In this document: positions 1-62,598 of the stretch, piece after piece
Layout of the letters: each line of letters opens with the position of its first letter
Numbering within the stretch: the stretch's first letter is position 1
Source: Psammoneis japonica
Taxonomy: Eukaryota
DNA: 64,000 nucleotides
Direction of reading: 5' to 3'
Assembly: GCA_008632985.1 (NCBI GenBank)
Contig: QPGO01000038.1
Location: forward strand, 149,939-213,938
Translations under genes and position numbers: made by a program
The notes under the pieces: model-generated
Databases searched by the model: none
Told to the model about the DNA's origin: nothing
What the model saw: only the letters and a program-made list of their open reading frames with translations

Positions 1-437
1 CAGCGCATGTGTGTGAGGTGATTGTGAGATGTTTGCCAGATGTGCACAAAATGTGTGAGATCTGTTTTTGAGGTGTGCACAAGGTGCGCATGAGATGTGC
101 TCATGATGTGTGTGAGATGTTTTTGAGATGTGTGTGAAGTGGTGCATGTGAGGGGTTTACAAGATGTGCACAAGATGCACACAAAAAAGTTTGAAAAATG
201 TGTGCAAGGTGTGCAAGAGGTTTTTGCAAAATGTGCGCAAGGTGTGTGCGTTGGCACTTGTGAGATGTGTGCAATGTGTGTGTGAGGTGTTTGTGAGATG
301 TTTGTGAGATGACATGTGAAACACTCAAAAGATGTGTGAGATGTGTGCAAGGTGCTTGTGAGACATGTGCAAGGCATTGGCCAGAGGTGTGTGTGCAATG
401 TTTGAAAGATGTGTGCAGAACATTTGGGAGACATGCG

Positions 438-1760
438 GGAGCTTTCTGCCAGACATGTGCAAAAGTGTTTGTGAGATGTGCATCTGGTGTGCAAGGCACA
501 TGTGTGAAGTGCTTTTTCAAGAGCCCTGTGCAAAAGAGCTGTGACACAAACTCCCGTTGGAGCATTTTGTGGTCACTGTGCTGAGCTTTCATCTGCTTTC
601 TCATCCAATGCATGCCCAACCACTGATTTGCAGGTGCACTCTCCATTGTAAACTCTGGCACTCATTTCCATCTCAACAACATTTGATGGCATGGCATGTG
701 TTTTCACAAAATTCTTTTGGCTGTTTTTCATTCTCAGACAACAGCCAAGGACCAAAGAATGCATGTGAAGCTGACAACAACTCCAGCAAGCATGTGGACA
801 TTGACTGCAAGCAAGGTTTTCTGTGTCTTGCACCCCAGCTTCCTTTGCTCAGTGTCAGAGGTCACTCTGGGACAGGCACAGAGCTGAGATGGAGAGAGAT
901 GGGTGTTTGACCTCCTCTGTTCTCCAGCTTCAAAAGTGCCCAACTCCCCTGGGAGAGCAGCTTCTCACACAGCAATGGCGCTTGCATGCATCAGCCCTTT
1001 TCTTGGATTTTCTGGCATTCCTTTTGCAGCTGCAAGCATGTGTTGCTTTGACTTCCACTTCTGCCATGCCAGCAAGGGATCGCCCCAAATGTGCTCAATG
1101 CACAAGATTGAGCATGCCTTTCCAAATGCTCTTGTTGCACAACTCGTTCATCAAACAAAAAGTGCGCCACATCACAGGCTTCACACTTGCACACTCCCTG
1201 TGCACCCAAAACAGGATGGGACAATTGTCTGCCAGATCACCTTTGCAGATGAAAATGGCAGGCCCTTTCCATGATCTGACCTTCAAAAAATCAGCAAAGC
1301 CTTTGTTGGGTTGACCCAAGAACTCCTGATGTGCTTGAAACATGCTCTCATCACCGTCAATTTTCTCCAACACAAAAGAAGCTGCCAAGAGCATGGCACA
1401 GCATTTTGTTTGTCTTTCAACACAGGTCCAGCCAAGGAGGGCATGCTGTGTGCCAGCGTGCCATGGTGTGCTGAGCTGGACAAACTGCAGCGCTTCTGGA
1501 GCATGACGGAGGCAGTCTTGGGACCCATGCCAGCAGGGAGTGTGGAGCAATTTTTTGGAATTTTGCACGCAGAAATGTGCGCGCAAAACACACGATGGAT
1601 GACAAAAACAATTGTGTCACAGATCAGCACTGTGAGCTCCCACCTGGGGCTGGAGCGCATCATTTCCACGTGTGATCTTCAAAAAAATTGTTCCAGACTC
1701 ACTGTTTTGCAAAACCCCAGATGTTTTGTTTGCAGCAAAATTGCAAGACCATCAATGCTC
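438..1760. repeat. Macrosatellite complex block A (other copies ~5704-7020, ~19066-20385, truncated ~24253-24509)
   Basis: Near-identical copies visible by eye, and the ORF track repeats the same peptides (e.g. NSFGCFSFSDNSQGPKNACEAD). Confidence 0.9.
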
Positions 1761-3989
1761 CAGGTGTGCAAGATGTGTGCACAAGATGCAAGCAAGATGT
1801 GTGTCAAATGCATGTGAGGTGCTTGGGTGAGATGTGTGCAAAATGTTTGAAAGAAGCGCGTGGGATGTGCGCAAGATGCACACAAACAAAATGTGCATGA
1901 CACACAAGACACACGCAAGGTGTTTGTGAGATGTTTGCAAAACATTTGTGAAGAAGTGTGTGTGAGGTGTTTTGCCAGGTGTGTGCACTGAGCATGTCAA
2001 ATGTTTGAAAGACCATGCTGTGTGTGAGATGTGTGTGAAGTGTTTGAAAGATGTGCGTGAGATGTGCACGGGTGTTTGCAAAATGTGGTGATTGCAAGAT
2101 CATGTGTGCAAAACATTTGAAAGATGTGTGCAAAGCACTCAAGAGATGTGCATGAGATGTGTGTGTGAGGTGTTGGCAAGATGCTCACAATTGTGCAAGG
2201 TGGGTGCAGGGTGTTTGCAAGACATGTGTGAGTGCAAGACATGTGTGCAAGATGTGTGTGCAAGATGTGTGTGCAAGACGTGTCTGCAAGACGTGTGTGC
2301 AAGATGTGTGTGAAGTGCATGCAAAATGCGCAAGGCATCAGCAAGATGTTTGAGAGATGTGTGCAAAATGTTTGGACAATGTGTGTGTGAGATGTGCACA
2401 AGGCATTTGCAAAAAATTTGCATGAGATGTGTGTGTAAAATGTGTCCCAAGATGAGTGCAAGGTGTTTGCAAAATGTGTGCAAGGTGTTTGTGAGATGTT
2501 TGCAAGCAGGTGTGTGTGGCACGTGCACAAAACATTTGAGTGATGTGTGCAAAGTGTTTGCAAAATGTGTGTGAGATGTGTGTGGTGTGCAAGAGATGTG
2601 TGTGCCATGGGTGTGTGCCAGACCTGTGCAAGGCATTTGTGTGACAGGTGCAAAGCATGTGGGAGCTGCACAGGAGCTGTGCTCCAGACATGTGCAGGGC
2701 ATTTGTGAGATGTGTGCATGATTTGCAAGACAGCACATGCAAGATGTTTGCAAATTTTTCGTGAGATGTGTGCATGGTGTGTGTGATCTTTTTATGATGT
2801 GTTTGTGAGATGTGTGCAAGATGTGTGCAAGGTTCTTGCAAGATTTGGTGTTTGCAAGGTGTGCACAAAATGTTTGAAAGATGTGCGCGAGACATGCGCA
2901 TGATGCGAGTGAGGAGCTGGCAAGGTGTGTCTGTGTGACGCCAGCAAAATGTGTGCAAGCTGTGCACAAGCACATTGTGTGTGAGGTGTTTGTGAGATGT
3001 GTGCAAGATGTGTTTGTGAAATGTGTGGGAGATGTGTGCAAAATGTTTGGATGATGTGCACGAGATGCGCGTGAGATGTGTGCAAGGCATTTGCAAAATG
3101 TGCGCGACACGTGCACAAAATGTTTGAAAGATGTGCGCGGCATGCACAAAAGACGTGAGCAACACATGTGCAAGGTGTGCACAGCATGTGTGCCAGACCT
3201 GTGTGGGGCATTTGTGTTGTGTGTGTGAGGCACAGCAGAGATGTGCAGGAGCTGCACACCTGAAATGTGCATGGTGTGCAAGACATGTGTGTGCAAAACA
3301 TTGAAAGATGCACGCAAGGTGTGCCAGATGTGTTCAATGCATGTGTGTGGGGTGTTTGTGAGATGTGCACAGCATGTGCATGATTTGTTTGTGAGATGTT
3401 TTCCAGGTGTGTGTGTGAAATGTGTGCAGAGCATGTGTGGTCAGTGTGCAAGATGTGTGCAACATGCACACCAGATGTGTGCAAGGTGTGTGCAAGATGT
3501 GTGTGAAGTGGTGTGCGTGAGGTGTTTGCAAGATGTGCGTGAAATGTTTGAAAGGTTCGTGAGAGGCAATTGAAAGATGCGTGCACAAAGTGCATGTGAT
3601 GTGTTTGCACAATGTGCACAAGGTGTGTGCAGGACATTTGTGAGATGTGCGCACAATGTGTGTGCAAGGTGTTTGACAGATGTTTGTGAGATGTGCAAAA
3701 CATTTGAAAGATGTGTGCACAAGATGTGCGTGGGATGTGTGTGAGATGTGTGCAAAGTGTTTGTGAGGTGTTTGCAGTGCATGTGCAAGATGTGCACAAA
3801 TGTTTGAAACATGTGCACAAGATGTGTGTGGGGTGTTTGCAAGATGTGCGTGAGATGTTGGCCAACATTGTGTGAGGTGTGTGTGTTTGAGATGTGTGCA
3901 AAATGTGTGTGTCACATTTGCAAGATGTGTCAAGATGTGCACAAAACATTTGAAAGATGTGCGCAACATGTGTGCAAGGTGTGTGCGAG

Positions 3990-4830
3990 ATGTTTGAAGC
4001 ACAGCAGGAGTTTGGTCAACCCAACAAAGATTTTGCTCACTCAGAAGATTTGACCCCCACTGTCTCCATCTGCAAATGTCATTCAGCAGAGATCCATCTC
4101 ATCCTGTCTTGGGTGCACAGGGCAAGTCATGTGAGAAAAGCTTTTGGAAGGATGATGCGCTCAATCCCGCACATTGAGCATGTTTGGAGATCCATTGCGG
4201 GCATGTGAAAGAAGCAGAGGACAAAGCAACACATGCCCACAGCTGCAAAGAAAGACCAGAAGATCCAGGAAGAAAGGGCTTCATGCACAAGTGCCGCAGC
4301 TGTGTGAGAAGCTGCTCCTGTGGGAGCTGGGCATTTTTTGGTGCTGATGGAACAGAGAAGGTCAAGCACCCATCTCTCCTCCCAACCTTGGCTCTGCACC
4401 CACCCCAGAATGACCTCTGATGCTGAGCAAAGGAGGTCAAGGTGCAAGACATGGGGAAACCCACAGAGTCGGCAGCCCCCCATGTGCTCAGTTTTGTGCC
4501 ACTCTTTGGCCCTTGGCTGTTGTCTGAGAATGAAAAAAGGCAAAAGACTCTCATGGTGCAAGCATGTTGTGCCAACAAATTTTGTTGAGATGCTGATGAG
4601 TGCCGGGGTTCACACCAGAGAGTGCATCTGCAAATGTGGGGTTGGACACACTTTGCATGAGAAAGCTCCTGGAAAGCTGAGCACAAGCGCAATGACTGCA
4701 AAATGTGCCAACAAAGTTTGTGCCACAACTCTTTTGCAGGTGGCTCTTGCTTTGACAAATCACCTCACTCGTGCTCCATGCACACCAGACACACATTTCA
4801 CAAACACCTTGCACACGTCTGAGGCATTTG
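3990..4830. repeat. Macrosatellite complex block B, a diverged inverted paralog of block A (other copies ~16907-17750, ~22528-23368)
   Basis: B (+) aligns to the reverse complement of A ~440-1345, e.g. ggctgttgtctgagaatgaaaaa, gctgtgtgagaagctgctc, caaagcaacacatgc, ggtcaacccaacaaag. Confidence 0.9.
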
Positions 4831-7800
4831 AGACATGCAGGAGCTGTGTGGCTGACTTGTGTGGCGTGTTTGCAAGATGTGTGTGCAAGCAGTTTGCAGG
4901 GCACACATGTGCACAATGTTTGAAAGATGCACACGAGGTGCATGTGAGGTGCGCAAGATGTGCGCATGTGGCAAGAAGCACGTGTGTGAGGTGTTTGCCA
5001 GACATGTGTAAAATGTGTGTCATGTGTTTGCAAGACATGTGTGCAAGCTGTGTGCAAAACATTTGAAATGTTGCGTGCAAGAAGCGCCACAAATGTGTGC
5101 GAGGTGTTTGCAAAATGTGTGTGCAAGGTGTGTGCAAGGCATTTGTGAGATGTGTGCAATGTGTGTGCAAGGTGATTGCAAGATGTGTGCAGTGCATGTG
5201 TGTGAGGTGTTTGTGAGATGTTTGCCAGATGTGCGCAAAATGTGTGTGATCTGTTTTTGAGGTGTGCACAAGGTGCACACAAGATGTGCTCATGATGCAT
5301 GTGAGATGTTTTTGAGATGTGTGTGAAGTGGTGCATGTGAGGGGTTTACAAGATGTGCACAAGATGCACACAAAAAAGTTTGAAAGATGTGTGCAAGGTG
5401 CACAAGAGGTTTTTTCAAAATGTGCGCAAGGTGTGTGCGTTGGCACTTGTGAGATGTGTGCAATGTGTGTGTGTGAGGTGTTTGTGAGATGTTTGCGAGA
5501 TGACATGTGAGACACTCAAAAGATGTGTTGATGGTGTGCACAGCACATTTGGGAGGTGCAAGATGTGTGAAAAATGTTTGAAAAATGTGTGTGTGCATGT
5601 GTGAGATGTGTGCAAGGTGCTTTTGAGACATGTGCAAGGCATTGGCCAGAGGTGTGTGTGCAATGTTTGAAAGATGTGTGCAGAACATTTGGGAAACATG
5701 CGGGAGCTTTCTGCCAGACATGTGCAAAAGTGTTTGTGAGTTGCGCATCTGGTGTGCAAGGCACATGTGCGAAGTGCTTTTTCAAGAGCCCTGTGCAAAA
5801 GAGCTGTGACACAAACTCCCATTGGAGCATTTTGTGGTCATTGTGCTGAGCTTTCATCTGCTTTCTCATCCAATGCATGCCCAACCACTGGTTTGCAGAT
5901 GCACTCTCCATTGTGAACTCTGGCACTCATTTCCATCTCAACAACATTTGGTGGCATGGCATGTTTGCACAAAATTCTTTTGGCTGTTTTTCATTCTCAG
6001 ACAACAGCCAAGGACCAAAGAATGCATGTGAAGCTGACAACAACTCCAGCAAGCATGTGGACATTGACTGCAAGCAAGGTTTTCTGTGTCTTGCACCCCA
6101 GCTTCCTTTGCTCAGTGTCAGAGGTCACTCTGGGACAGGTGCAGAGCTGAGATGGAGAGACATGGGTGTTTGACCTCCTCTGTTCTCCAGCTTCAAAAGT
6201 GCCCAACTCCCCTGGGAGCAGCTTCTCACACAGCAATGGCGCTTGCATGCATCAGCCCTTTTCTTGGATTTTCTGGCATTCCTTTTGCAGCTGCAAGCAT
6301 GTGTTGCTTTGACTTCCACTTCTGCCATGCCAGCAAGGGATCCCCCCAAATGTGCTCAATGCACAAGATTGAGCATGCCTTTCCAAATGCTCTTGTTGCA
6401 CAACTCATTCATCAAACAAAAAGTGCGCCACAACACAGGCTTCACACTTGCACACTCCCTGTGCACCCAAAACAGGATGAGACAATTGTCTGCCAGATCA
6501 CCTTTGCAGATGAAAATGGCAGGCCCTTTCCATGATCTGTCCTTCAAAAAATCAGCAAAGCCTTTGTTGGGTTGACCCAAGAACTCCTGATGTGCTTGAA
6601 ACATGCTCTCATCATCGTCAATTTTCTCAACACAAAAGAAGCTGCCAAGAGCATGGCACAGCATTTTGTTTGTCTTTCAACACAGGTCCAGCCAAGGAGG
6701 GCATGCCATGCACCAGTGTGCCATGGTGTGCTGAGCTGGACAAATTGCAGCACTTCTGGAGCATGACGGAGGCAGTCTTGGGACCCATGCCAGCAGGGAG
6801 TGTGGAGCAATTTTTTGGAATTTTGCGCGCAGAAATGTGCGTGCAAAACACACGATGGATGACAAAAACAATTGGTCACAGATCAGCACTGTGAGCTCCC
6901 ACCTGGGGCTGGAGTGCATCATTTCCATGTGTGATCTTCCAAAAAATTGTTCCAGACTCACTGTTTTGCAAACCCCAGATGTTTTGTTTGCAGCAAAATT
7001 GCAAGACCATCAATGCTCCAGGTGTGCAAGGTGTGTGCAAGATGTGTGCACAAGATGCAAGCAAGATGTGTGTCAAATGCATGTGAGGTGCTTGGGTGAG
7101 ATGTGTGCAAAATGTTTGAAAGATGTGTGCGGGATGTGCGCAAGATGCACACAAACAAAATGTGCATGACACACAAGACATGCACAAGGTGTTTGTGAGA
7201 TGTTTGCAAAACGTTTGTGAAGAAGTGTGTGTGAGGTGTTTTGCCAGGTGTGTGCACTGAGCATGTCAAATGTTTGAAAGACCATGCTGTGTGTGAGATG
7301 TGTGTGAAGTGTTTGAAAGATGTGCGTGAGATGTGCACAGGTGTTTGCAAAATGTGGTGATTGCAAGATCATGTGTGCAAAACATTTGAAAGATGTGCAC
7401 AAAGCACTCAAGAGATGTGCATGAGATGTGTGTGTGAGGTGTTGGCAGATGCTCACAATTGTGCAAGGTGAGTGCAGGGTGTTTGCAAGACATGTGTGCA
7501 AGATGTGTGTGAAGTGCGCGCAAAATGCGCAAGGCATCAGCAAGATGTTTGAGAGATGTGTGCAAAATGTTTGGACAATGTGTGTGTGTGAGATGTGCAC
7601 AAGGCATTTGCAAAATTTGCATGAGATGTGTGTGTGAAATGTGTCCCAAGATGAGTGCAAGGTGTTTGCAAAATGTGTGCAAGGTGTTTGTGAGATGTTT
7701 GCAAGCAGGTGTGTGTGTCACGTGCACAAAACATTTGAGTGATGTGTGCAAAGTGTTTGCAAAATGTGTGTGAGATGTGTGTGGTGTGCAAGAGATGTGT

Positions 7801-8336
7801 GTGCCATGGGTGTGTGCCAGACCTGCACAAGGCATTTGTGTGGCAGGTGCAAAGCATGTGGGAGCTGCGCAGGAGCTGTGCTCCAGACACACAGGAAACA
7901 AGAATCCACGGAATCACACGGAATGTGTGCGCGACTCTGTCACGAAAGGCCTCAAAACCGACTCTGTCACAAAAGGCCTCAAAACGGAACATGAATGACA
8001 TGGTGCAAAATGAAAAAAGCCTCATCAAAATCCGCATCACATTCCAACGTGTGCACTCATTCCACACCCAAGACGCAATTTGCACATTCCGTTTGCCATT
8101 TCGTTTGTCAGAAAGAGGCCACTCATTTTAAATTCCATTTGCTGTTCCTTTTGCTGCACTCCGTTTGTGGATTCCTTTCACTCAACCAATGACACGGAAT
8201 GCAACAGCTTCACTTTCCGTGTTGTGGTCGGAATGTGGCATGTCATCTCTAGAGCTTGTGATGTGGAATGCTTTGCGGAGTCAAGCGAAACTCCAAAACG
8301 GGATTGTTGTGCTGCTGCACTTCCATGCACAGCGAG

Positions 8337-8522
8337 TGACAGAATGCCAAAGGTCAATGATGACAGAGGCATGAAAGCTCCCCAAGCACTGGGACTGTGA
8401 CAACATGAGCACCAGCAGATGAGAAAGTGAGAGGCAGATCTCAGAGAGATCTGCTCGTCTGTCTAAATGGTTCGGTCATCATCCATGTGCAGTCTGTTCA
8501 TTGTGCGATGGGCAGACTGACA
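8337..8522 (-). repeat. 3' LTR of the Copia element (186 bp)
   Basis: tgacaga...ctgaca; aligns end to end with 13969-14155; followed on + by ccctcccct (PPT complement). Confidence 0.95.
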
Positions 8523-8689
8523 CCCTCCCCTGATCTGCAATGTCTCAAAAACAGAAGACAGTGCAGATCAAAACAAGAACAGGGATGATGTGAACAGAGC
8601 GACCAGAAAGAGGACACCAAATGTGTCCAAGCCCAATGTGCATCAAATGACGGGGCAACATGCAGCAGGGAGGCCACCCAGGAAAAATG

Positions 8690-11274
8690 TCAACGGCAGT
8701 GTCCCATCATGCGTCGAGCATGGCAAGCATGGAGCACCCACCCAAGAGCCTTGGTGAGGTCATCACTGGGGTTGATGATGCCAGGGATGTGTCCAGTGAC
8801 AATCTTGCCTGCTTCCTTCCATTCTTGAATCGTGAAGAACTGAGTCTCAATGTGGTGTGAACGCTTGGTTGGAATCGAATGATTGATGATCTTGATGGCC
8901 AATTTGTTGTCAACATGCAAAGGGGTTGGCTTCATTTGGGAACAACCAAGGTCATGCAGCACATGGCGAAGGCAAAGAACATGCTTGGTGGTGGCACCAG
9001 CAGCACAGAATTCTGCTTCTGTAGAACTCGCAGCTGTCACCGACTGCGTCTTGCAACAAAAGGAGACAGCAGCACCAGCTGACATGCAAGCATGTCCCAT
9101 CGTGGAATGTCGATTGCGAAGATCATTTCCGTGTGCAGCATCAAGGAAGGCAACAAGTTGATGGTCATGCTCAGGAGCAGGGAATGATGGGAGAGACGGG
9201 TCGGGACTCAAGCGTTCATGCGGACAGGCAGGGAGGCTCGGGTCACGTTTAGATTTCTTGCAGTTCAATTCCCAATGTTTGATGCGTCGGAGACACTTGC
9301 ATGCATCCTTGAGTGCATTGCAGTGCACCGCTGCAGGACAAGTGGAGAACTTGGAAAGGGCAGTGATGGCACAGCCAATGTCAAGTCGACAGACAACACA
9401 TGCATGCAATGGCTCACCAAGGAGGGCACGGCATCCAAACCCAGCAGCTTGTTGTAGCTCCGCATGTTCCAGTGTGCCTTCAGCAGACCAATGGCAGTGT
9501 AAAGATCGCGAACAGAATCCACCAGAATTGGAGTCGCCTTAAAATCATCAAGCAGTTCTTCATCACTTGGTGTGGACCAACCATGTGAGAGGCAAACACG
9601 GTCGATGCAATTGTGGATGGCGACACCAATCAAGTCATCATGCTGATGGATGTCCACACCATTGAATTCCTCCAGGAGGCCAAGGCACTTGAAAGGTGGA
9701 GCAGTTTCTGAGTCCAATTGAAGGGCTTTGCCAATCCTGTCATAGATTGTCTTGGCAATGGACTCTTCGGGGCAAGCAATGGCGAAGTCATCGACCTGGC
9801 AAAGGAGCAAAATTTTGTGTCCTTCAAATGCAGCAGAGCAGACACATTTGTCATGAGTGGTGTTCCGAAACAAAAGATTCACATCAGATGAGATGCCATC
9901 AATGTGATTCTCCCAGAGCATGCCGGCTTCTGGGTGTCCTTGAAGAGCATGTTGCACAGGGAGGACCACACTCATGTCCAACTCCTTTCCAAATCGAGAC
10001 TTGTGCCAAGTCGCATGTGCATCATCAATGGCAACGTGTGCAGGATGTGACAGGCGGGGAGAGTGGGCACAGGCATCTCGGGCATCACCGCCATGTGCCG
10101 GACAACCCATTGTAGCTGCCAGGGCAAACAACATCCGTTGGACAGGTTGCTCAACACAGGAGGAGCATGTTGAATGGAGACGATGGAGAACAGATGCAGC
10201 ATGAGGGGAGCCATCGCAACACTGATGAGAGTGCCACGTGCCGTCATGTTTGAGGTCATGTTGCCAGTGTGGTCTCAGTGCAACTGCATCCTTTGGACGT
10301 TTGACAGGAGCACCAAACATGCCCAACTCATGAAACTGGTCAAGTTGTTTAAATTCGCCCGCACGCCACTCAGGCCAAGCACCCAATTGCTTGAGGCAAT
10401 GGCGAGTGAAAGTGCCCAAGGCTTGTTCCTCTGGGGCAATTGCACGGGAGGAGATTGCACGGATGTTGACGACACCATTGTCGCAGTCAACACACACAGG
10501 TGGCAGGACGTCATCATCGTCAACAGCTTCAAAATCAGTGTCGGGATGGCGCACCGCAGCAATGGCACGTGTGTCGGCCTGTGCAAGTTCTGGGACATGT
10601 TCATTGTCAGGGTCCGGGGCAGGGGAGAAGATGTTGTGCTCCATCAGAGCATGTTGGAGAGCTTGAGAGTCCAAGCGACGTTCTGGCATGACTTCAATTT
10701 CAAAATGTGTCTTGCCAGACTCATGCAACTGCTGGAAACACTTGACAGCATCGTCACGGGTAAAAACTGGTTGATGATCAATCGATGCGATGTGCGCGCC
10801 TTTGATCTTGCTGCGGGTCACCTTCAAGTTCGAGAAGAGATGAGCAGTGGGGGAACCATGTTGAATGTCCGAGACAAAAACACATTGGTGCAGATCATCC
10901 ACAGCTGAAGAGAAGCCATGAGTGGGATCCGTGAATGGTCCTTTCATGATGCGTGTGATGGTCTTGGCAAAAGGGTTGCCATGGAAGTGGAGTTCATCCA
11001 CAGCAGTCTCTTCAGTGTCAGCAGGGAGGGCATCACCAGCCTGAGTGCATTGCAAATGAACAACATTCGGGGGAATAGAGTCGTGGGGTAAATCATTCAT
11101 CCCCTCATCACATCTGATGTGCTTGGCCAGCTCAACACGCGATGTCTTGGTGTCGCACCACAAAATGTTCTTGGTGGCATCCGGAAGGCATCCCAAGAAA
11201 ATCCCTTTGCGGGAGACGGTCCGGAATTTCGCTGGACGGTGATTCGCCCCATTGAAAATCTGGAGACTGGACAA
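8690..11274 (-). pseudogene. pol: Copia pol remnant: integrase C-terminal (SH3-like) region, PDZ-like insert, reverse transcriptase, RNase H; frameshift near 9400-9490
   Basis: SRKGIFLG, ALQGHPEAG, LLCQVDDF (RT catalytic), DAAHGND, SSTEAEF, PLHVDN, NPSDDLTKALG (Copia RNase H). Confidence 0.93.
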
Positions 11275-13830: not shown

Positions 13831-13968
13831 CGTGAAAAATGCAGGGAAAGCAAGAAAAAATTTGTTGTTGGAACAGACGATGAGGCTTGCTCGGTTGGCT
13901 CACAAAACAAATGAATTGAGATGGAAAGCTTGGCACAGAGTTCTGTGGCACAGTGCAAGGCCACAACC

Positions 13969-14155
13969 TGACAGAGTGCCGAAGGTCAACAATGACAGAG
14001 GTGTGAAAGACTCCCTGAGCACCAGGACTGTGATGACACGAGTGCCAGCAGATGAGAAAGTGAGAGGCAGATCTCAGAGAGATCTGCTCATCTGTCCAAG
14101 TGGTCCGGTCATCATCCGCGTGCAGTCTGTTCATCGTGCGACAGGCAGACTGACA
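13969..14155 (-). repeat. 5' LTR of the Copia element (187 bp)
   Basis: Aligns with 8337-8522. The adjacent minus-strand GGTTGTGG resembles the GGTTATGG half-tRNA-iMet primer-binding site of copia-type elements, with TA->TG. Confidence 0.95.
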
Positions 14156-39590: not shown

Positions 39591-39699
39591 AAGTAATAAG
39601 CTACACAAATCAACCATATATATGTACTGTTCATTCTTTCTTACTCCAAGTCACAAGCATCAGATGCTTGCTTGCTTGCAGTAGCATCTAGAAACTCAA

Positions 39700-44290: not shown

Positions 44291-44419
44291 CTCACTGAAG
44301 TCTCTTTTCATTGCAGAAGGCTAGGGCCCTAATCAATTAATCAAGCACGCTCAATGCGTTCCAGCTACTCTAGAGAGCAAACTCATTGAAGTACCGTAAC
44401 TGGGAAACAGGCTCTCACT

Positions 44420-49044: not shown

Positions 49045-49239
49045 TTCATGTATTGGTTATGCCAGAGTAGATCCAAAGCTACGGATTCAAGAGAGGTTAC
49101 TTCGCACAAAATCCACACAGATCCGAAGCAAAATACATGTTCAAGAGAATCTACTGTAGACAATGTTTAACTAGGTCAACTTTCATATGAATGAAGTGAA
49201 CTGTCTGGCCTCGTCCTTACTGACTTCATCCGATTGAAA

Positions 49240-50626: not shown

Positions 50627-52192
50627 GATGAAAGGTCGCCATTCGCCATTGATGTCGTTTGTGTTTTCGTGCGGTGGCGGGTCGATCTTTTTCAAGTTGA
50701 AGCTGACGTAGGCGCGAGATTCGCGCTTCCACATACAGTGCGATGAGGCGAATCATCCTGGAGCTCGGACCTCGAGCTATCGCAGAACGTCACCGCGGCA
50801 GCGGCGGTTTTTGCGTTTTCTACGGTTACCGTAAAGCGTACGTAGGAATTGGTAATAATTTTGTAGGTACCAAATCCCACGAATGATCTACATACTAAAA
50901 CATTGGTATTAATCCTACGAAGGTTCACAAAAATGATAGTGATTGAGAAATTTAGCAACGGTCAACGACACACAAAATCTCCCGTTTTTTTTTCGCGCTC
51001 GTTTCGATCACAACTCGTTGTCTCGCACGATGTGTTGTTGTTCGCCAAGCAACGATTGCCGCGATCGCCCAGGATGGCTCGCCCTTCTTGCGGATAATAG
51101 AGAGCTAGCTCTTGTTTGGTGTTCCACAACTCATCATGCTTGTTGACGTGTTGTCTCCAGGTGGCGTAGGTGTTGCCAGTTAAGTCCAGAGGTCGGGGCA
51201 AATCGAATGCGTCTCTCCGGCCTTGAGTCCATGTCACTCTCGTGTCTTTGAGCGTAGGAAGTTGCCTGTTCGCTTGACCCGTCAGGTCACAGCTGTTGAA
51301 ACAGACAGCAGCGTTCGTCTGTGAAGCAGCAAAAGCTCGCCAAGCAGATCATGCCGTTGACGGAACGCGGGTTTGGGGTTCCGTCGTATCAGTGACATGA
51401 TACGGTAAGTCTTCACTCGTAGGGAGTGTTGATTTAGAACGCGGTTGACTCGCAAGTTTTCTTGTTGTCTCCGTAGTACGTCCCCCCTTTTACATTTTTT
51501 GGGTGATATTTTTCACTCGGAAGATACGTAAAAGCTTGAGCTCTATCTTTTGATGGAGCTCTTGAGGCAATGTTATCCTACGCGACCGATTTCTATCAAC
51601 TTTTGATATTGGCGTGTTTCAAATATTTGAAACACGCTTTGAAACTTTTCCAATAGAAGTAGAACTACTAAAAGTACAATGTAGCAATCTTTATTGGCGT
51701 GTAAGTTATTCCGTACGTACGTCAATAGACTGCGATGACGGTCGTAGCGCTTGCGATGTCGTTGCATACTACCTTGCCTAGGGCCCACGCTGGGGTATTC
51801 GTTATGTATTCCTTAAGGCTTGTGATGATATGTGCTGGACTATTTCGGCACTGGATTGTTTATACGACTTTACATTGATGTCGCTTCGGCCATGTCGGGT
51901 GTGTCGCTCTTTGGGCAAACAGCTGCATCACTCAGTACGACAGAAATTATAAAGTGGCATTTTGAAAGGCCGGCTGTGAACAAAAAAAATACTGAAGTTA
52001 GGGACTATTCTCGGTGTACACATTGTTGTCTGAAGAACAAGACGTGCCTACTGCTTTCCATTCATTCGCTATTGCGCAAGGATACCCTCGCTTTGATTTT
52101 CGACACGCAAGAGTAGTTTCTAGTGATGCAATCTTTGTCAGCGTAATGGGCTGACCTTGCTGATGCCGGCGTAAACCTCAGGTTTAATTATT

Positions 52193-54047
52193 CTAGCTTC
52201 TACTGACACTGGGACTCCTACTGTGGCGTTACCTTTTCCTCTTGTGCTTCTTGTCGTGACGGTGCTCCTTTCGTGCGTCAGCCTCTCGATCATGGTGGTG
52301 TCTGCGCCGTCTGTGACGATCGTCGCCTCCACCATCACGGTGTCTGTGTCGATGACGATCTCTACCACGTTTCTTGTGATGTTGCTTCCTCCTACGTTTT
52401 GGGCTACGGCTCCGATCACTCTCACTGCTGCGACTAGCCGGGTGAGCGTCTGTCGAAGGAACGGGAACGGCTTCTTCGCATTAAGCGATCCTCTTCGTCA
52501 CGTCTATGTTGTCGATTGTAGTGGTCGTCACCATTATTGTGTCGCCTGTGCAAATGCGGTGAGCCGTCTCTTTGATAATCATCGTAGTATCGATTTCTAC
52601 GTGATGCCGGCCTGTCGCGTCCGTGTTCATGTACGATGACGACGATCTTTTGCGTCTCCCGGTGGCGGTCCACGAACTTCTCTGCCTCCATTGCGATGAT
52701 CATAACGATGCTGTGGTGGGCGTAGCTGCTGATGACCCGCATGGCTATTATGCCGCCTTTGATCACTGTCACCTTGCTGTCGACTCCGTTGAGGAGGCTT
52801 TTATTGGTCCTCCCGGTGCTCTCATTCGGTGCCCATACTTGTTCCACACTTTTGCTACACTCTCTGAAAAGTCCACCTTGATACGCCGGTCATCAATAAG
52901 CGCATTGTTCGTTTTAAAGTATGATACCTCCACACACTTTTGCTTGTAGGCTAACTCGACAAAGGCATACTGGAGAGACGCGCCGGTTTCGTTGTCTCGA
53001 ATAGTTTCAGCCTTGACGTCTGGATCAAAGCGTGAAAAATAAGTTCCAAGTCCTCATCATCCGTCACTGGATTCAATTTGCAAACAAACAAAACATTCTC
53101 GGGAGCCTTGATGTCTATAAAGCAAAACACAGTGCAGCTAAGAGAACAAGAAGCAAAAACACACACAAGTCGAACGCTTGCATAAGTGCAAACTCACCGG
53201 CAGATGGCAAGCCCCCCAACATTTCCAAAACGACGGCACGCGATTTGTCTTCTCGTTATGAATCTCTTCTTCTCGTTGTCTAGCCTTTTCGTGAGTTTCG
53301 TCTTCCTCCTCCGCTTCGTCCACTTCATTTGCTTGAATGCGGTGCTCTACAACTTCTTCTGGAGGACGAATGTACTATTCAGGACACGCCGTCACTTTAT
53401 CATCTTCCATTACAACACCACGATGCTTAAGCAAGTCATCCATTCCGGGAGGATCATCAAATGCATCATGAATCACTAATGCACGCACAATACGTATATC
53501 CGCAAACGAACGTCAATCGGTGTCGCAATACAAATATGCCGCTTGAAGCTTGTCCAGTACACCTTCTTCATCCTCAGCTACCGTTTCCAACGACAAGAAT
53601 TGCTGTTGCTTTTGTTCGGTACTGTTCGATGATTCCACCATGAGCCCATCCAGTGCTTGCAGAGGCCCCCGTTCCAACGTGATTATATAAACTGAGATCC
53701 AATGATATCCGGTATCAAGTTCATTTCAGTCGCGACGACCCGTCCTCGCTGCTGCAATTCCTCCTTGCTCAAAAAGTGTCCTTTTGTTTTCAGAAATCGT
53801 TTTTGACTCTCTTAATACTCGTAGTGTTTGTCGTAGCGACAATCAGTCCATATATGCAGTCGCCTCCATTGCCATTGCACAGGGGTCTCCGCATTGACTC
53901 TGTCGTTGAGGCAAAATGTTGTAAATCAGCGTGTGGTGTAGTAGCGAGCCTTGGCTAATTTCAAAACATTCCGAGCGAGCGCTAGACTCCCTCGATATCC
54001 AAGTCAATCATGACATCTCCAATTGTAGTTTTCAGCAATAGCGACAT
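52193..54047 (-). CDS. PPIL4: Cyclophilin-RRM protein, PPIL4/CYP59-like, with R/D/S-rich tail; many apparent frameshifts (pseudogene or indel errors)
   Basis: [16 protein letters not shown] start; [24 protein letters not shown] (RRM); [27 protein letters not shown]-rich C-terminus; probable intron ~53117-53197. Confidence 0.85.
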
Positions 54048-54299
54048 ACTTTTGGGAATAAGCAATGGTTCTTCTGTTGTGTTGTTGGTGCGTTGTCTGC
54101 TTTTACTATTTTTTTTTACGGTCGGACGAAAGCACAAGCAGCTAGAAACGATTGCATCCAATCGATTTTTACGCTTGCGATTTGCGATGTAGCTGCATGC
54201 TTTGATGCTGCCATTTCTGTTTTTGTACCGCACCGCTCTCTTTTTTTTCAGATGGGGTTCACGCTGGGGTGTTCGTTACGGCATGCCACAACGCTTGTC

Positions 54300-57200
54300 A
54301 TCGATGAGTGCTGGGCCAGTTTGGTGCTGATCGCCTGCATGTTGTTGTGGATTTCTTGTTGAGAGTTGTTCACTTCTTGTTGCCAAAGAGGTCAGAGGTT
54401 CAAGTGTTCTGCCGAAATGGTGGAGCACCCGCAGAAGAACGCCGACAACAAAGTCTCCATGGGGGTTTGTCTGAGCCATCTCAATTCTAAAGCAGCCAGC
54501 TGCAATGCCCTCTCCAGCAGAAAAAAAACAAAAGATTCGAACATCGTGAATTTTGTTTCTCGGGCGGCGCCAAGCTCCATTCATCCTCTTTCTGAGGTGA
54601 ACAACCACCTGGCCATGTGATGCTGAATGCTTTTTTCAGCTGAAGAACTCTCTAACTTGTCTTTGAAGTTGGCATCAAGCATGTTGATCAATGCACGCAT
54701 CAGGGTGGAGCAGATGTTGTGAGACGAATCGAGCTGTCGCAATCCTTTCTCCCGCTTTTCCCCTTTCACAGCAACAGCTTTCTCTTGATCCTCTCGATCA
54801 ATGCACGCATCAGGGTGGAGCAGAGGTTGTGAGATGAATCAAATTGTTGCAATCCTTCCTCCTGCTTTTCCCCTTCCACAGCAACAGCTTCCTCTTGATC
54901 CTCTCGATCAGTCTCGCCCACAGCACAATTCCACCACTGTCCCATCACTGAATGATGACAAACAGTTCTGCAGGAGATGTGTCAGCTGTCAGCAACTGTG
55001 CTTTCCAAAGATGCCAAGTCTGCTCCCTCCTTCTTGAAACTGTCTCCTGCAACACAGATGATTGTGGCCTCTTCCTCCGACCGTCGCCCTGTTCACACTT
55101 GCCGTCTGTGTGCTCACCTCATGTTTCATCTGTCGAGGGTTCACCCAGTGGTTCCATGGGGCCAATGCTTGTGCATCACCTGTCACAATCAAGGTTTCTC
55201 AAATGCTGGCACTCTCTGCCTTTGCCATTTTTTTAGGCTGGCACTCATCCTTGGTCTACAAATGCATGCGCAGCCATCAGTTCTTTCATGCTCTTGACAA
55301 AATTGTGCTGTCACAAGCAGTTGCAATGCATGATGCATGCAACAGCATGACAATTCGATGGATTTTGCATCTCCCACATTGATCATCACTGACCATGGCA
55401 ATCACCTTTTGGGCACACTGGGTCATCCTGTGTTGGCGCACTGGTGTTGGCAATGTCATGCCACTGGACCATCCAACAGATGCTCAAAGTGGAGCGTCAT
55501 TTTGGGAGGCTGCCTCTGTTGACCCATCTGCAGTCTTGCACACACCAAATGCAACACGGGACAATTTGGCTTGTGGCATTTTGGGAGTTTGACTTGTGCA
55601 TCATGGACAATTTGGGCAACTGGCAACCATTCAATTCATGCATTGCCAAGCTGGTCATGGCAATCTCCCACCTCTTGGACATGCTGGGCCATCCCGTGTT
55701 GGCGCACATGCCTGCCGGGGTGGAACACTCCGACAGATGCTTGCAGCAAATGTCATTTTGGGGGCCTGTCTCCAGTGGTGCCTTTGGAGTCTTGCGCACA
55801 CCAAGCACATTGCGGAATGACTCGGCTTGCAGCATTTGGGTTTGATGTGTGCTCATGGACGATTTGGGCAGCTGGAGTTGTCTCGCACCTGTTCACACCG
55901 GCACATTGCCAAGCTGGTTTTGGCAATCTCCCATCTTTTGGATGTGCTGGGTGACAGGGTGGGATCCTCTTGCAAACACTTCAGTGAATGAAATTTTGGG
56001 GACCTGGCTCTGTTGGAGTCTCTGGAGTCTTGCACACTCCAAACACAATGTGGGATGATTCAGTTTTGTGGCATTTTGGGTTTGACATTTACATCTTGGA
56101 CGATTTGGACAGCTGGCATCTCCGGCCTGTTCACACATTGCCAGATGAATTGTGCACGGAATGGCAGCCATTTGGAAAGCTTGTGATTGGCCATGTTTGG
56201 AAGGATCACCATCTAGCATGAAACCAGAACAACACACAGACCAGATGATCATCATCATGTCTTGCAATGCCAAACCGGGTCCAGTGCAAAAAGAAACCGG
56301 GTCTTGTGCAGAGCAAATCCACCACAATGGCAGAAAGACAGCAAGTTCAGAAAGTGCTCTGAAAACTCAGCAATTGCAAGAGTTTGTCATGATTGAGTTT
56401 CAAGAAAGACCGTTCTTACACTCTTCTTGACCAAATGCATTGCACCCCGCTGTTGGGATCACTGGGGATGGTGTGTGTGTGACACAAGGGCTCTTGAGTG
56501 GAGCTTTGATGAAGGGCTCAATCCCAACCCCTCTGAACCTTGTGACTCAGCAAGTGCTTTCAAACAAGATGCCAAAGAAATCCAATGCATGAAGAGCAGA
56601 AGTCAAACTTTGCATTGATGGTCTTGGTGACAATCTGCATCGAGAGCAGAATTTTCACTGCGAAGTGCAAAAAAGAATTGTTCACCGAGATGGCAACTCC
56701 AAACCATCCAGGTTTGACTTGATCCTCCTTTGTCCATCTGACTGGAAAGTTCTGTGGTGAGCAATCGCAGTCATGCCAAAGCTGGATGTGGCCATTCCAC
56801 CAATGGATGCAGAGAAATCTCAATTTGTGAGCTGCAAACCACTGCCAACCGTTCTTCACCCTTCTCATCAAGAGACCAGAGCAATGTCATTTTGACAATT
56901 TTGATTTAATTCAACCCATCTTGTGAGCCTCACACTCATTGTTTAAACTGTGGTCAGGTCAATGGGGCTGACTCTTGTTCAAAGCAAGCGGCTGCACAAC
57001 AAGTGATGTGGCGGAGCATCCAAGAAACTGCCAATCTTGCAGACTCACGAATGTCTGGTGTCACGCAACATGCTTTCAACCATGAATTTTGTTTTGAATC
57101 ATTGGCATCTTTCAACATCTTTGACACCCAAATGTCACCCAGTGACAGCAGAAACTTTGGCGTCTCAATGTGGAGAGCAGGTCCAAAGTGTTGTCCAAAC

Positions 57201-60200
57201 AAAGGCAGTGGATGCCATTGGCTTGACGTGTCTTGCTTCAAGACCCAATGACCTCTTGCTGAACCCATTCCAAGGAGGACTTTCCTTGGCAATCTGCACA
57301 TGCTCCTTGACAAGAACATCATCCTGCAGCTCCGGCTGTTCCAACAAATCAAGCCAAACAAGGCGGGCTTGATTGATCTGGGAAATGCCATGCCCACAAC
57401 AACAGTGGCATCCATTTCAGAACAGTCCTGCTCTGGTGTCGACCACGAGTCAAGTGAAAAGAATGAACACAGCAAGACCAAAAAGCTCTGGTGGCTGCCC
57501 ACCCCACTGAAGCAAGCACTGGCTGAACCACAGACCCCCGCAGTGTGGCAGATGGGGTCTGGTGCTCACACAAGCCACACAAAATGTGACAGTAAAAAAA
57601 CCATTTTTTCCCACTGTTTTCCTCTGGTTTCAAATGCTTTGCCATTTTTCCATTGATGCACACACAAACTGCCACAACAAAATCACCAGTGATTGGTGTT
57701 GGAACAATGACGGTGCCATGGGTGAAGGAGAAGTGCAATGAACCCCACCTGAGGAGTGTTGAAACCCATCTGTTGAAGCTGGAGAGTCAGCTCCAGTGCA
57801 GAGATGGATCAAGCACTTCAATTTTGCTTCATCATTTTCAAGAAACATGGCAAACAATGCTTTTGATGTTCCTTCCCTTGCTCTCCAAGTTGCACCCAAG
57901 GGTGTTCTGTGCCACAACAAAGGGGTTTGAGCACAAACATTGCCGCTGAAGCCAGCCATTTCTTCTGTTGACGTTGAGTCTTTGTCCTCCTTGACAGGAG
58001 AGACATCATGTGGGTCTCATGTGCACCAACAAATGGTCACACACGTCATCTGGCATTTTTTCCAAGAACTGAATCAGCAGAGATGCCACCATGTTGATTT
58101 GCTTGCATTCCAAGGGGGCAGAAACTTTGACTGAGCAATGTCAATGGTGGCAGAGCAGCTGGATGTGAGAGATGGGAACAATTGTTTGCTCCATGGAATC
58201 ATCCCAGCACACTCTCATGACAACAAACTGCAACCAGAGTTGAGGCACACTTGCCCTTTTGACATGCCACAACTTGAGCAGCAAAATGTGTGGGGTCACA
58301 GCATTCACACAGCCTGCAGCCTCTCTGCATGGTGATGTGCCCAACCCTTCACTGGAACTTTGCTGGAGCTCCATCAAAGTCACCTTTTGCAAACAGCACT
58401 TTGCCAATGACTGAGTGTCAAAGCAACATTTCATCACCAGAGTTGGTGTGAACAGCAGGACACTTGCTCACATTGTCCAATTCTGGGTGCCATCCACCAC
58501 TGTCAAAGCAATGAGAAGTGAAAGAAGGAATGCTGCTGGTGAGCAGTCTGGCGCAAGCACCGCTGGTGCCTTGTGGGCCAGGACATGATGTGTGATGTGT
58601 CATCATTGATCACGTCGGCATGTTGATTTTGAATTTTGCAGTGAAGGGATGGACAGGAAATCTTGCAGCAGTTTGGAGCTCGCAGTGCTGACTCATTGTT
58701 TTTTGAAATGCAGCTGACGTCACAGGGGTTTGCATCACTTTCTTCTTGCACACAAAGTGCGACAGTGAAAAAGCCATTTGTTTTCCTGCCACCACATTTT
58801 CCTCTGATTTCAAACTTGCCATTTGCTTGCCCTTTCCAAAAAATCTGATCACTTTGATCAAAGGCTGTTTCAGCACTCTCCCAGACCAAATGCATTGTGG
58901 CCCACTGTTGGGAGCACTGAGGATGGTGTGCATGACACAAGGGCTCTTTTGAGTGGAGCTTTGACAAAGGGCACCATCCCCACCTCCTCTGAATGTTGTG
59001 ACATCACGAGTGCTTTCCAAAAATGACACCGAGGAAATCCAACACATGAAGAACAGAAAAGTCAAACTTCACATCAATTGTCTTGGTGCAGAATCTGCAT
59101 CGAGAACAGAATTTTCACCTGCAAAGTGCCAAAAGAATTGTTCATTGAGATGGCAACTCCAAACCAGCCAGATGCAGCAGCACAATGGAAAGCTTGACTT
59201 GCTCTCCTCCTTTGTCAGTCTGACTGGGAATTTCTGTGGTGAGCAATCACAGTCATGCCAAAGCCAGATGCTGCCATTCCACCAACGGATGTGGAGAGAA
59301 ATCTCAATTTGTGAGCTGCAAATCATTGCCAACTGTTGTCCATCCTTCTCTTCATGAGACCAGAGCATTGCCATTTTGAGAATTGGGATTTTATCTCACC
59401 CATCTTGCAAGCCTCCCACTCATTCCTTTTACCGTGGTCAGGTCAACGGGGATGTCACTTGTTCGAAGCAAGTGTTTGCATGAGTGATGTGGTGAAACAT
59501 CCAAGAAACCATCAATCTTGCTGACTCATGAAAGCCTGGTGTCACACAACATTCTTTCAATCATGATTCTTGTTTCAAGTGTCTTTCAGCATCTTTGATG
59601 CACAAATGGCTGCTTGAGCATTTCAACATGGAGAGTGGGTCCAATGCATTGTCCAAAGCCATGCGATGGATGCACCACATGTCTCCAACACACCCGATCA
59701 ACCTCTTGCTGAACCCCCATTCCAAGGAGGACTTTTCTTTGCCAAAGCAGCCCAAATGTTCCTTGACAAGAGTGTTGTTCTTCAGCTTGGGCTGTTTCAA
59801 CAAATCAAGCCAAAAACAAGATGGGCTTGATTGATTTGGGAAATGCCATGCCCACAACAATGGTGGACTCCATTTCAGAACAGCCCTGCTCAACTGTCAA
59901 CCACAAGTCAAGTGAAAAGAGCAGCCATGCAATGACTCCCATTGCACATGCATTGATCTTTTTGTAGAGTCATTCCACATCCTCACATCTGTTTGGATTC
60001 AACATGCACCACATTTTGATTGCGTTGCATCACAAGCGATCTGAATGGCTTCACAAACTGAAATGTGATTTCTGGCATTGCCTCCAACCATGAGTGCCGT
60101 GTCAACATTGGCCACTGTCTCTTGCATTCTCTCTTCTGGAGCTCTGTGTTTCTCATGCAGACCCATTGCAGTTGTTTGAATTCATTGTTCTGGCGTGGCT

Positions 60201-60840
60201 TTGGCATCAAAGAATCGCTCCTCTTGGTCAGGCGCAGTTGATGATGGCAATTTGGGTGGAACAAATTGCAGCACATTGCTCAGCTTAGAATGAACCTTGG
60301 CCACCATGCAACTCCATTCAACAGCACAGCGGAGAGTGTTTGCCAGCAACACTGTTGCAGTTCTTTGAACCATCATTGTCGCAAGTCGCAAACACCTGCG
60401 GCCTCGCAAACCGTTCTTGACGTTTCAACTTTGTAAAACTCAATCTGCTGGGGCCACAAGCCTTGCACGCTGAATGCCTCAGTGTTGCAGACAAATCAAT
60501 GGGTGCAAATGAGGAATTGCAAACAACAATCGAAACAGGCATCAACGATCTCTGCAGGGTGCAGCAGTGGGTCGGGGGTGTCGGGTGTGATGCTGCAGAA
60601 ATGGAACAAAAGACAGTGGGAGCTCGGCGCTCAAAGATTCATCATCATTTCTTGAAGCAACAATTCACCAGAATGAGGACCATGCACTGGGTGTCCTCTT
60701 TTGCAGCACCAACAAATCTGCACAAAGCTCTGTCATTTGTCAATCAAAGGAGAAGCCGAGCGGCTGCATCATCATGGTGGAAGTTGAAAGTTTGCTGTGT
60801 CCAGCCAGTTTTTTGCACCACGCCGGTGTCGATGGAGACA
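54300..60840. mobile_element. Degenerate TpA-depleted repeat/TE-derived domain with internal duplications; family not recognised
   Basis: Same TpA-poor, CA/TG-rich composition as 1-24660. Internal repeats: 110 bp x2 (54686-54910), ~245 bp x3 (55390-56170), ~1 kb x2 (56430-57470 vs 58885-59920). Confidence 0.55.
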
Positions 60841-60841
60841 A

Positions 60842-62496: not shown

Positions 62497-62598
62497 GATC
62501 TTGCAGGTAGCCATATGTGACAATAATTGTTTTGCGCTGATGCCGCTTACGAAACAAGAGGAGGCTACTTCAATGGTGTGTAGTTTTCTCACGAGAAC

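Follow-up and report, generated by a model that had tools for sequence, protein, structure and literature searches.

Domains Nearly Devoid of TpA in a Diatom Genome Point to Host-Imposed, TpA-Specific Hypermutation

Hypermutation restricted to the dinucleotide TpA was very recently described in the chlorarachniophyte Bigelowiella natans (Mettrop et al., 10.64898/2026.01.13.699255; all statements on B. natans below refer to the main text of this preprint). Two silent viral inserts, one of a giant virus (186 kb) and one of a virophage, had gathered 231 mutations in mutation-accumulation lines; 230 of these were A>G or T>C changes, all of them at TpA, at a rate of ≈6e-7 per site and generation. 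Only 11 of the 15 lines showed the process at work. The B. natans genome has 124 clusters of windows that are poor in TpA and rich in CpA+TpG, and these are enriched in reverse transcriptase (RT) and DDE domains. An ADAT2-like deaminase was proposed as a candidate, and DNA activity of the amphioxus BjADAT2 and the trypanosome TbADAT2 was cited; diatoms, stramenopiles and satellites are not mentioned in the main text. Here, we describe a 64,000-nt stretch of the diatom Psammoneis japonica (contig QPGO01000038.1, positions 149,939–213,938; hereafter “the window”, whose 64 kb all within-genome results cover), in which three domains, occupied by a macro-satellite, a terminal inverted repeat (TIR) element with a Copia retrotransposon, and other non-genic DNA, have lost almost every TpA.

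The changes documented below resemble those in B. natans in being A>G or T>C exclusively at TpA, yielding TpG or CpA, in their regional confinement, and in that an adenine deaminase is the favored agent. The host, however, is a diatom (Stramenopila) and not a rhizarian alga, and the targets are a macro-satellite, a TIR element, Copia and intergenic blocks, where in B. natans they are inserts of a giant virus and a virophage, each present as a single copy. Here, TpA is depleted nearly to saturation, with observed/expected (o/e) ratios of 0.01–0.08, whereas the hypermutable nucleocytoplasmic large DNA virus (NCLDV) region of B. natans keeps 3.3% TpA (Rho 0.45). In B. natans, mutation was measured in real time; here, it is read from sequence comparison. 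The present analysis adds a T-A-pyrimidine sub-preference and a co-located but separable decay of CpG.

The process also resembles repeat-induced point mutation (RIP) of ascomycete fungi, which is likewise an in-place transition hypermutation of repeated or mobile DNA that leaves a dinucleotide footprint and sharp-edged compositional domains. In RIP, however, C>T changes turn CpA into TpA, enriching TpA, whereas here TpA becomes CpA or TpG and is erased. RIP makes stop codons, whereas the process described here removes TAA and TAG. Furthermore, RIP is triggered by duplication, whereas the window has, in genic DNA, a tandem duplicate of 709 bp with 88.6% identity that was left alone. According to PMC9998398, diatom transposons carry cytosine methylation, and the diatom DNMT4, of unknown function, is related to fungal RID. 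The decay expected of 5-methylcytosine (5mC), with CpG>TpG/CpA changes and CpG depletion, was found in the same domains as a secondary component, but it cannot remove TpA, and the loss of TpA is far more complete than that of CpG. A literature search, with subscription journals outside its reach, gave nothing on the loss of TpA from diatom repeats or on their hypermutation by A>G changes; the only directly comparable report that it found was the main text of the B. natans preprint, without its supplements (the “hypermutation” of the SPLASH paper concerns antibodies and was set aside). If correct, what is new here is thus the extension of a barely known DNA-editing phenomenon, itself of a kind very recently described, to diatoms, together with a testable fingerprint.

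Segments low in TpA were called by a two-state hidden Markov model (HMM) on the positions of TA. The low segments are 1–18336 (49 TA) and 18703–24653 (7 TA), which make up domain 1, 39828–43991 (12 TA; domain 2) and 54278–60998 (16 TA; domain 3). The features of the window are as follows, with the strand given where one was assigned:

1–7880: macro-satellite of ≈5.19 kb per unit, comprising unit A and the beginning of unit B, from BLAST of the window against itself (self-BLAST); TpA o/e 0.01, CpG o/e 0.23.
7881–15621: 7.7-kb insertion splitting the satellite (TIR element), recognized by its inverted arms; 41 TA, TpA o/e 0.08, CpG o/e 0.54.
8337–8522, minus strand: Copia 3′ long terminal repeat (LTR), 87% identical to 13969–14155.
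8699–11238, minus strand: Copia RT/RNase H coding remnant, with Tyr codons turned into TGY or CAY, from homology to Copia polyproteins.
13969–14155, minus strand: Copia 5′ LTR, which pairs with 8337–8522.
15622–18319: macro-satellite, from the remainder of unit B into unit C, from self-BLAST; TpA o/e 0.01.
18320–18711: miniature inverted-repeat transposable element (MITE) of 392 bp, inserted in the satellite, with ≈27-bp terminal inverted repeats; 33 TA, TpA o/e 0.95, CpG o/e 1.07.
18712–24653: macro-satellite (unit C and partial unit D), from self-BLAST; TpA o/e 0.02; right border of domain 1 at 24654.
24654–39827: genic segment of normal composition (HMM, open reading frames (ORFs)), used as an internal control; it holds a P4-ATPase gene and the 709-bp tandem duplication.
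39828–43991: low-TpA domain 2, intergenic; 12 TA, TpA o/e 0.04, CpG o/e 0.16.
43992–54277: genic segment of normal composition, with an EGF-like ORF, an FG-GAP repeat protein and a DUF3598 ORF.
54278–60998: low-TpA domain 3, with repeats; 16 TA, TpA o/e 0.04, CpG o/e 0.33.
60999–64000: segment of normal composition; its border lies inside a fragment paralogous to 50549–50726.

The low segments contain 84 TA in 35,172 bp; with the genic density of 1,177 TA in 28,461 bp, they would contain ≈1,450. Such a deficit cannot be due to chance. Pooled over the low segments, the o/e of TpA was 0.04, compared to 0.62 in the normal segments. The corresponding values were 0.33 and 1.03 for CpG, 1.98 and 1.20 for CA, and 1.94 and 1.12 for TG, and G+C was equal, at 0.45–0.48 in both. 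In 1-kb windows, TpA o/e was 0.00–0.11 across 1–18000, 19001–24000, 40001–44000 and 55001–61000, versus 0.34–0.78 in the fully genic windows between the low domains; the intergenic DNA of the normal segments had 0.5–0.8. The longest TA-free run measured 2,782 bp, and there were 38 such runs of at least 300 bp. TGCA and TGTG were strongly enriched in the low domains (o/e 5.8 and 7.3, versus 1.3 and 1.0 in normal DNA), which did not contain a single TATA. CpG depletion varied between the low domains, with an o/e of 0.16–0.54. At all four borders (24654, 39827/8, 54277/8 and 60999), the density of TA flips within <100 bp: there is no TA over 23900–24654 and normal density thereafter; TA is dense up to 39827, and the next one is found only at 40379; dense TA ends at 54277, and at the right edge of domain 3 a lone TA at 60870 precedes normal density from 60999.

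An earlier note on this DNA, made from the letters alone, had described three TpA-free domains with sharp borders at ≈1–24660, ≈39700–44290 and ≈54300–60840, with CpG reduced but present and with TG, CA and TGCA dominant. The HMM placed these blocks within ≈300 bp of the same positions, and the borders, the residual CpG and the enrichment of TG and CA (o/e ≈2) and of TGCA all agree with that description, as does the difference from genic DNA within the window, which the note had named as one of the points on which it could fail. The domains are not uniformly free of TpA, however: the MITE at 18320–18711 forms an island of normal composition, and depletion is less complete in the Copia/TIR block at 7881–15621.

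The direction of change could be read from the Copia element. Its RT matches the Pfam family RVT_2 at 30 bits only, and its closest relatives are diatom-type Copia polyproteins with 52–56% identity. At positions where the 10 best homologues have Tyr (295 pooled), the window Copia has Cys in 44%, His in 32%, Phe in 12% and Tyr in only 7%. Trp, by the same comparison, is retained at 98% of 101 pooled positions, and Arg is replaced by His in 13% and by Cys in 8%. Among codon columns whose residue is shared by 70% or more of 21 homologues, 25 are Tyr columns, and these hold TGY (13), CAY (8), TTT (2) and TAY (2), while all 10 Trp columns remained TGG. Four of 20 Val columns now read GCA, and at 11 of 38 Arg columns CGY has become CAY or TGY. 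Since Tyr is encoded only by TAY, the Tyr losses are TA>TG and TA>CA changes, and the stability of TGG at Trp indicates that neither base of a TpG is affected. Judged from these codon columns, the direction from TA to TG or CA is established for the window Copia.

That the change took place after integration follows from the two Copia LTRs, which were identical at integration and now differ. All 24 differences between them are transitions, with no transversions. Eight adjacent double differences occur, and in seven of these TG in one LTR faces CA in its partner. We estimate from shared and half-decayed CpGs that about two of the seven TG/CA pairs could stem from CpG; the remaining ones require an ancestral TA that was struck on opposite strands. 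The satellite units exhibit a similar pattern, with transition:transversion ratios of 4–5:1 between unit pairs and TG/CA making up 19/22, 6/8, 6/8, 11/12 and 9/10 of the adjacent doubles (51/60 in total). Between these units, CG/TG and CG/CA differences dominate. In the genic 709-bp duplicate, used as a control, there are 38 transitions and 39 transversions, and TG/CA is found in 0 of 24 adjacent doubles. The fragment at the border of domain 3, a paralogue of the gene at 50.5 kb, has TGCA where the gene has TATA.

New TAs, which arise when TpG undergoes G>A or CpA undergoes C>T, were rarer among the three satellite units than the rates in other contexts would predict (6 versus 19.1, P = 5e-4). 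With reference rates taken from 12 events, this is only suggestive of a continuing removal of TA in the satellite. An attempt to draw conclusions from the satellite on T>C at TpG was dropped, since CpG decay and TpG>CpG gain fit the patterns alike; the Trp columns of the Copia element (10/10 TGG) speak against T>C at TpG.

The same conversion was found elsewhere. A scan of metagenome contigs with the RT-region alignment yielded 80 related Copia loci (labeled L0xx), with TpA o/e ranging from 0.11 to 0.83. The conserved Tyr codons are distributed as 1 TAY, 11 TGY and 4 CAY in L022, 5, 15 and 3 in L013, and 6, 9 and 8 in L077, compared to 14, 0 and 0 in L035 and 19, 0 and 0 in L055. Trp was retained throughout. 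L022 is ≈82% identical to many unconverted family members, and its changes could be polarized against the majority of 11 relatives. Of the 218 changes, 67 occurred at TpA sites, where T>C had affected 21 of 69 (a rate of 0.30) and A>G 46 of 78 (0.59), while the rates in other contexts were 0.03–0.11. Changes at CpG were not raised (5/66 and 7/66), and C>T outside CpG was at background (26/448). In three control copies, 1–6% of TpA had changed. The sense-strand outcomes in L022 were 28 CA and 49 TG. Over 15 loci, the fraction of majority-TA sites now found as TG or CA was graded, from 11% in L043 and 21% in L019 (background divergence 1.9%) up to 86% in L022, and only 2 of 943 such sites had ended as CG, so that one hit finishes a TA site. 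In L077, the low-TpA part starts at the boundary of a truncated Copia. The converted loci are confined to two accession series, and there were none in the loci of the other series.

Protein databases contained similar copies. The entry P0118 has no Tyr at all. In P0079 (1,582 aa; 1.0% Tyr, 4.1% Cys), the conserved Tyr columns hold 9 Cys, 2 His and 2 Tyr, and Arg is intact. TpA was thus lost without extra loss of CpG in both L022 and P0079, and the two processes are separable, in contrast to the earlier note, in which TpA and CpG loss were parts of a single signature. From these comparisons, CpG decay is probably a second, slower and separable process, as would be expected for cytosine methylation of diatom transposons.

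Among the public records there are several further observations. Converted Copia copies have been deposited as long “proteins”, of which P0079 is one. Two records contribute the near-identical loci L013 and L014, in which conserved Tyr codons are strongly biased to TGY over CAY (15:3). The partly converted loci L040, L044 and L053 have long runs of one kept/TG/CA pattern in common; either partially converted copies were duplicated, or variants of one locus were sampled.

Conversion depended on the 3′ neighbor of the adenine. When each TA in the metagenome loci was counted as two candidate adenines, one per strand, the converted fraction in T-A-X was 0.37 (153/411) for C, 0.30 (114/377) for T, 0.17 (65/372) for G and 0.16 (30/193) for A. 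A preference for T-A-pyrimidine implies that YTAR should survive and RTAY should vanish. This is what we found in the window: only 1 of the 84 surviving TAs in the low domains is RTAY, compared to 358 of 1,174 in normal DNA, while YTAR accounts for 33 of 84 versus 182 of 1,174 (Fisher P = 5e-7). There are no RTAY survivors in the satellite, in domain 2 or in domain 3, and 11 of the 33 TAs of the MITE are RTAY. This residual bias is common to all low domains and ties the non-Copia domains, whose ancestors are unreconstructed, to the same process.

We consider it very probable that these domains reflect an in situ, TpA-specific hypermutation imposed by the host. The earlier note had likewise argued that the signature was imposed by the host rather than inherited from the elements, a view supported by the Tyr-to-Cys/His codons, the transition-only LTRs and the shared residual-context bias. 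In the process that we propose, TpA in chromosomal DNA would be turned into TpG or CpA by A-to-G changes on either strand; the targets would be repeated, mobile and non-genic DNA, and the process would continue until TpA is almost exhausted. A slower CpG-to-TpG/CpA decay, typical of methylated cytosine, would proceed in the same domains. The agent may be a DNA-acting adenine deaminase of the TadA/ADAT2 kind, by which an adenine with a 5′ T would be converted to hypoxanthine and copied as G at replication, so that each hit would abolish its own target site. Recruitment could occur via silenced chromatin or small RNAs. The effect would be inactivation, since Tyr codons would become Cys or His and every TA-containing signal would be lost. 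Adenine deamination as the chemistry we rate at even odds. On balance, rewriting of TpA by the host through a putative DNA adenine deaminase, plus a separate decay of CpG, is the best explanation of the whole, that is, of the direction of change, its strict specificity for TpA, its action after integration, its sharp limits, the T-A-pyrimidine preference and its presence in other diatom-type Copia copies. Our broadest suggestion is a tentative one: a chromatin-guided defense by a DNA adenine deaminase in diatoms and, with Bigelowiella, perhaps in the wider SAR group, a kind of “inverse RIP” that would edit 5′-T-A-Y in silenced repeats, satellites and invaders.

The context preference fits this chemistry. 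TadA and ADAT2-ADAT3 act on an adenine preceded by U or T, and the order found here is T-A-C > T-A-T > T-A-R. The native site of bacterial TadA is U-A-C, and engineered adenine base editors are DNA-acting forms of the TadA family. However, we know of no natural enzyme of the TadA/ADAT2 family that edits chromosomal repeat DNA as a defense.

Several observations weigh against this account or are neutral to it. Adenine deamination and thymine-directed chemistry give identical sequence outcomes. The conversions are scattered, and in 10 of 11 loci runs tests, both of kept versus converted and of TG versus CA sites, gave no strand-coherent tracts (P = 0.38 and 0.10 for L022); the one exception, L024 (P = 0.007), is of no note given that 11 tests were made. 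There is thus no sign of a burst or a processive event, and a steady, locally raised rate fits equally well. The ancestral TA state of the satellite is not reconstructable, and its three units cannot polarize the changes; by an estimate from the counts, a model with CpG decay only would predict ≈14 of the 25 TG/CA mixed satellite columns. The MITE inside the satellite is untouched, so that the process either spares some DNA within a domain or has been inactive since the MITE was inserted; the MITE thus either arrived after the last activity or goes unrecognized. Finally, many Copia copies are unconverted at a background divergence similar to that of converted ones (e.g., L054 compared to L053 and L074), which implies that targeting is copy-specific or host-specific.

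Two alternatives carry some weight. The same in situ hypermutation of TpA could be due to a TET/JBP-type oxidase or another thymine modifier, generating a base of the 5-hydroxymethyl- or 5-formyl-uracil type that mispairs with G and gives T-to-C. We are not aware of any thymine oxidase that is specific for TpA and highly mutagenic for T>C, and we consider this alternative unlikely, although the strand-symmetric outcomes are compatible with it (T>C at R-T-A is formally equal to A>G at T-A-Y) and CpG, too, is lost in the same domains, where a 5-methylpyrimidine oxidase could in principle strike both 5mC and T. The loss of TpA in L022 and P0079 without extra loss of CpG makes one enzyme for both unneeded, T before G is untouched in all 10 Trp columns, and polynucleotide adenine deaminases naturally prefer a U-A context (main text of 10.64898/2026.01.13.699255). 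Alternatively, an untargeted, genome-wide TpA>TpG/CpA pressure might be repaired in active chromatin and left unrepaired in heterochromatin, so that repeats drift to a TA-free state. This would be consistent with the genic TpA o/e, which is already ≈0.62, with the graded and scattered conversion in the metagenome loci, as a steady rate predicts, and with the shortage of new TAs in the satellite, which suggests continuing removal. Such a pressure would, however, not be expected to leave the intergenic DNA of the normal segments at 0.5–0.8, the MITE within the satellite at 0.95 and borders sharp to <100 bp, nor to separate L054 from L053 and L074 at similar background divergence, and the restriction of the B. 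natans process to 11 of 15 lines argues for regulation (main text of the preprint). We therefore regard it as slightly less likely still than a thymine modifier.

The other alternatives carry far less weight. If a modified base were misread, a TA in the cell might be reported as TG or CA, and the three public runs listed for this locus, none of them of RNA, indeed come from one sample only. The same TpA-only conversion and the same context rule are nevertheless present in other Copia loci, in contigs produced by others from other samples, as well as in P0118 and P0079, which makes an artifact of this one assembly unlikely. Homologous sites are fixed as TG in one copy and CA in another, which a context-driven miscall would not produce, the embedded MITE reads normally, and a contig of run X1 agrees over 38000–43251 with one substitution and one indel (X1 is possibly the source sample, hence not independent). 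We thus consider a sequencing or assembly artifact very improbable. An inherited or selected composition, in which the elements were always TA-poor or TA was selected against, for example through TA-targeting transposon insertion or a nuclease, is just as improbable. It could be argued for the satellite, which is made of short TG/CA-rich motifs and whose original TA content is beyond reconstruction, but the Copia relatives have normal Tyr codons and a TpA o/e of 0.6–0.8, conversion ruins the protein and so was not selected for element function, and four unrelated sequence classes have the same depletion and the same residual-context rule. The least credible of all is ADAR-like A-to-I hyperediting of retrotransposon RNA, followed by reverse transcription and integration. 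ADARs favor a 3′ G, while the 3′ preference here is for a pyrimidine. The best-documented target is, to be sure, a retrotransposon, and A-to-G with a 5′ U/T neighbor is an ADAR preference (Discussion of the preprint). Editing of the copied RNA strand, however, could not yield T>C on the sense strand (CAY at 8 of the 25 window Tyr columns; 28 CA versus 49 TG in L022), the LTRs diverged from each other after integration, and the same depletion and context bias extend to DNA that has no RNA intermediate, namely the satellite, the flanks in the TIR element, and domains 2 and 3. Three further candidates were rejected: fungal RIP, because TpA is erased and not enriched, L022 has no more than background C>T outside CpG and the genic duplicate is spared; an APOBEC-type C>T process, again because of the background level of C>T outside CpG; and biased gene conversion, which would not be dinucleotide-specific.

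If this reading is true, TpA-specific DNA hypermutation, so far a single observation in a rhizarian alga, also operates in another major lineage, that of the diatoms, organisms of ecological dominance that are amenable to genetics, and its end state is visible here as kilobases without any TA, satellites included. The deaminase defense suggested above, if real, would imply that eukaryotes naturally possess an enzyme able to deaminate the adenine of chromosomal DNA, which would be of interest both to genome-defense biology and to base-editing technology. The process offers a testable enzymatic fingerprint: a T-A-pyrimidine context, no second hit at a site, and no dependence on the decay of methylated CpG. 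Counts of Tyr-to-Cys/His replacements in transposon proteins and tracks of TpA o/e provide tools for surveying genomes and metagenomes and, if the defense interpretation holds, TpA density would be a sequence-only record of DNA that has been treated as non-self. A practical consequence is that DNA free of TA cannot hold TAA or TAG, which gives rise to long spurious ORFs and database “proteins”; an example in the satellite is a 682-codon ORF at 20439–22487.

The satellite of domain 1 comprises three full ≈5.19-kb units, ≈97% alike, and a partial fourth. Self-BLAST matched 1–2690 with 5190–7889 and 332–5958 with 18960–24509, and the pairwise identities of the units (0.968–0.979) make them about equidistant. 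The units (1–7880 and 15622–24509) contain degenerate, TG/CA-rich sub-repeats of 11, 22 and 33 bp and have a strong G>C skew on the plus strand, up to 0.47. They also contain many overlapping ORFs of 200–680 codons, which are liable to be mistaken for genes by gene callers. Satellite homology breaks off at 7889 and picks up at 15613, on either side of the 7.7-kb block, whose 50-nt inverted arms (7881–7930 and 15572–15621) are 88% complementary. The MITE at 18320–18711 is located where two satellite alignments break; its terminal inverted repeats begin CAGACG.GTTCCAG, and the window holds no second copy. Inside the 7.7-kb block, the N-terminal half of Copia (590 residues of the relatives) had no match at 11238–13969 at E < 1e-3. 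A 46-nt inverted pair (12719–12764 and 13174–13219) lies where the Copia gag, protease and integrase would be expected, and this region may represent a nested insertion or a replacement.

Domain 3 contains a 110-bp tandem repeat, repeats of ≈260 bp and a duplication with a spacing of 2.46 kb (56419–57462 and 58874–59920, 77% identical). When the two duplicates were compared by tblastx, no reading frame stood out, and Pfam gave no credible family for any of the 40 stop-to-stop ORFs taken from domains 2 and 3. Domain 2 yielded no internal repeat either. Across 43073–43339 (≈270 bp), the summed word depth in the contigs of run X1 was ≈4,700, compared to ≈60 in neighboring DNA, and it was ≈260–370 over 43340–44140, suggesting that this domain has, at its right edge, a short repeat of very high copy number. 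The contigs of run X2 do not cover 39869–44140 but do cover the flanking genes; no conclusion on expression was drawn from this. The restriction of TpA loss to repeats, as proposed in the earlier note, therefore stands for domains 1 and 3, but most of domain 2 yielded no evidence of a repeat or mobile element. Of the DNA in domain 1, the Copia and the TIR element are mobile, and the satellite is repetitive but not mobile. Conversely, both the MITE and the genic tandem duplication (28193–29614) escape.

The two copies of the genic duplication, at 28193–28898 and 28907–29614, align over 709 bp with 88.6% identity and have normal TpA. They sit in a 497-codon ORF (28050–29543, minus strand) without a Pfam match and of ordinary composition. 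The same genic segment holds a gene for a P4-type phospholipid flippase at 32578–36350 on the minus strand. Its best 120 longer homologues, where named, all come from diatoms, with identities of up to 57%, which places the host among the diatoms, in support of the earlier attribution; by this measure, the host would be a diatom without a close named relative in the protein database searched. The gene consists of two overlapping ORFs, 32578–33984 and 33882–36350, an arrangement that suggests an intron or a frame change near 33.9 kb.

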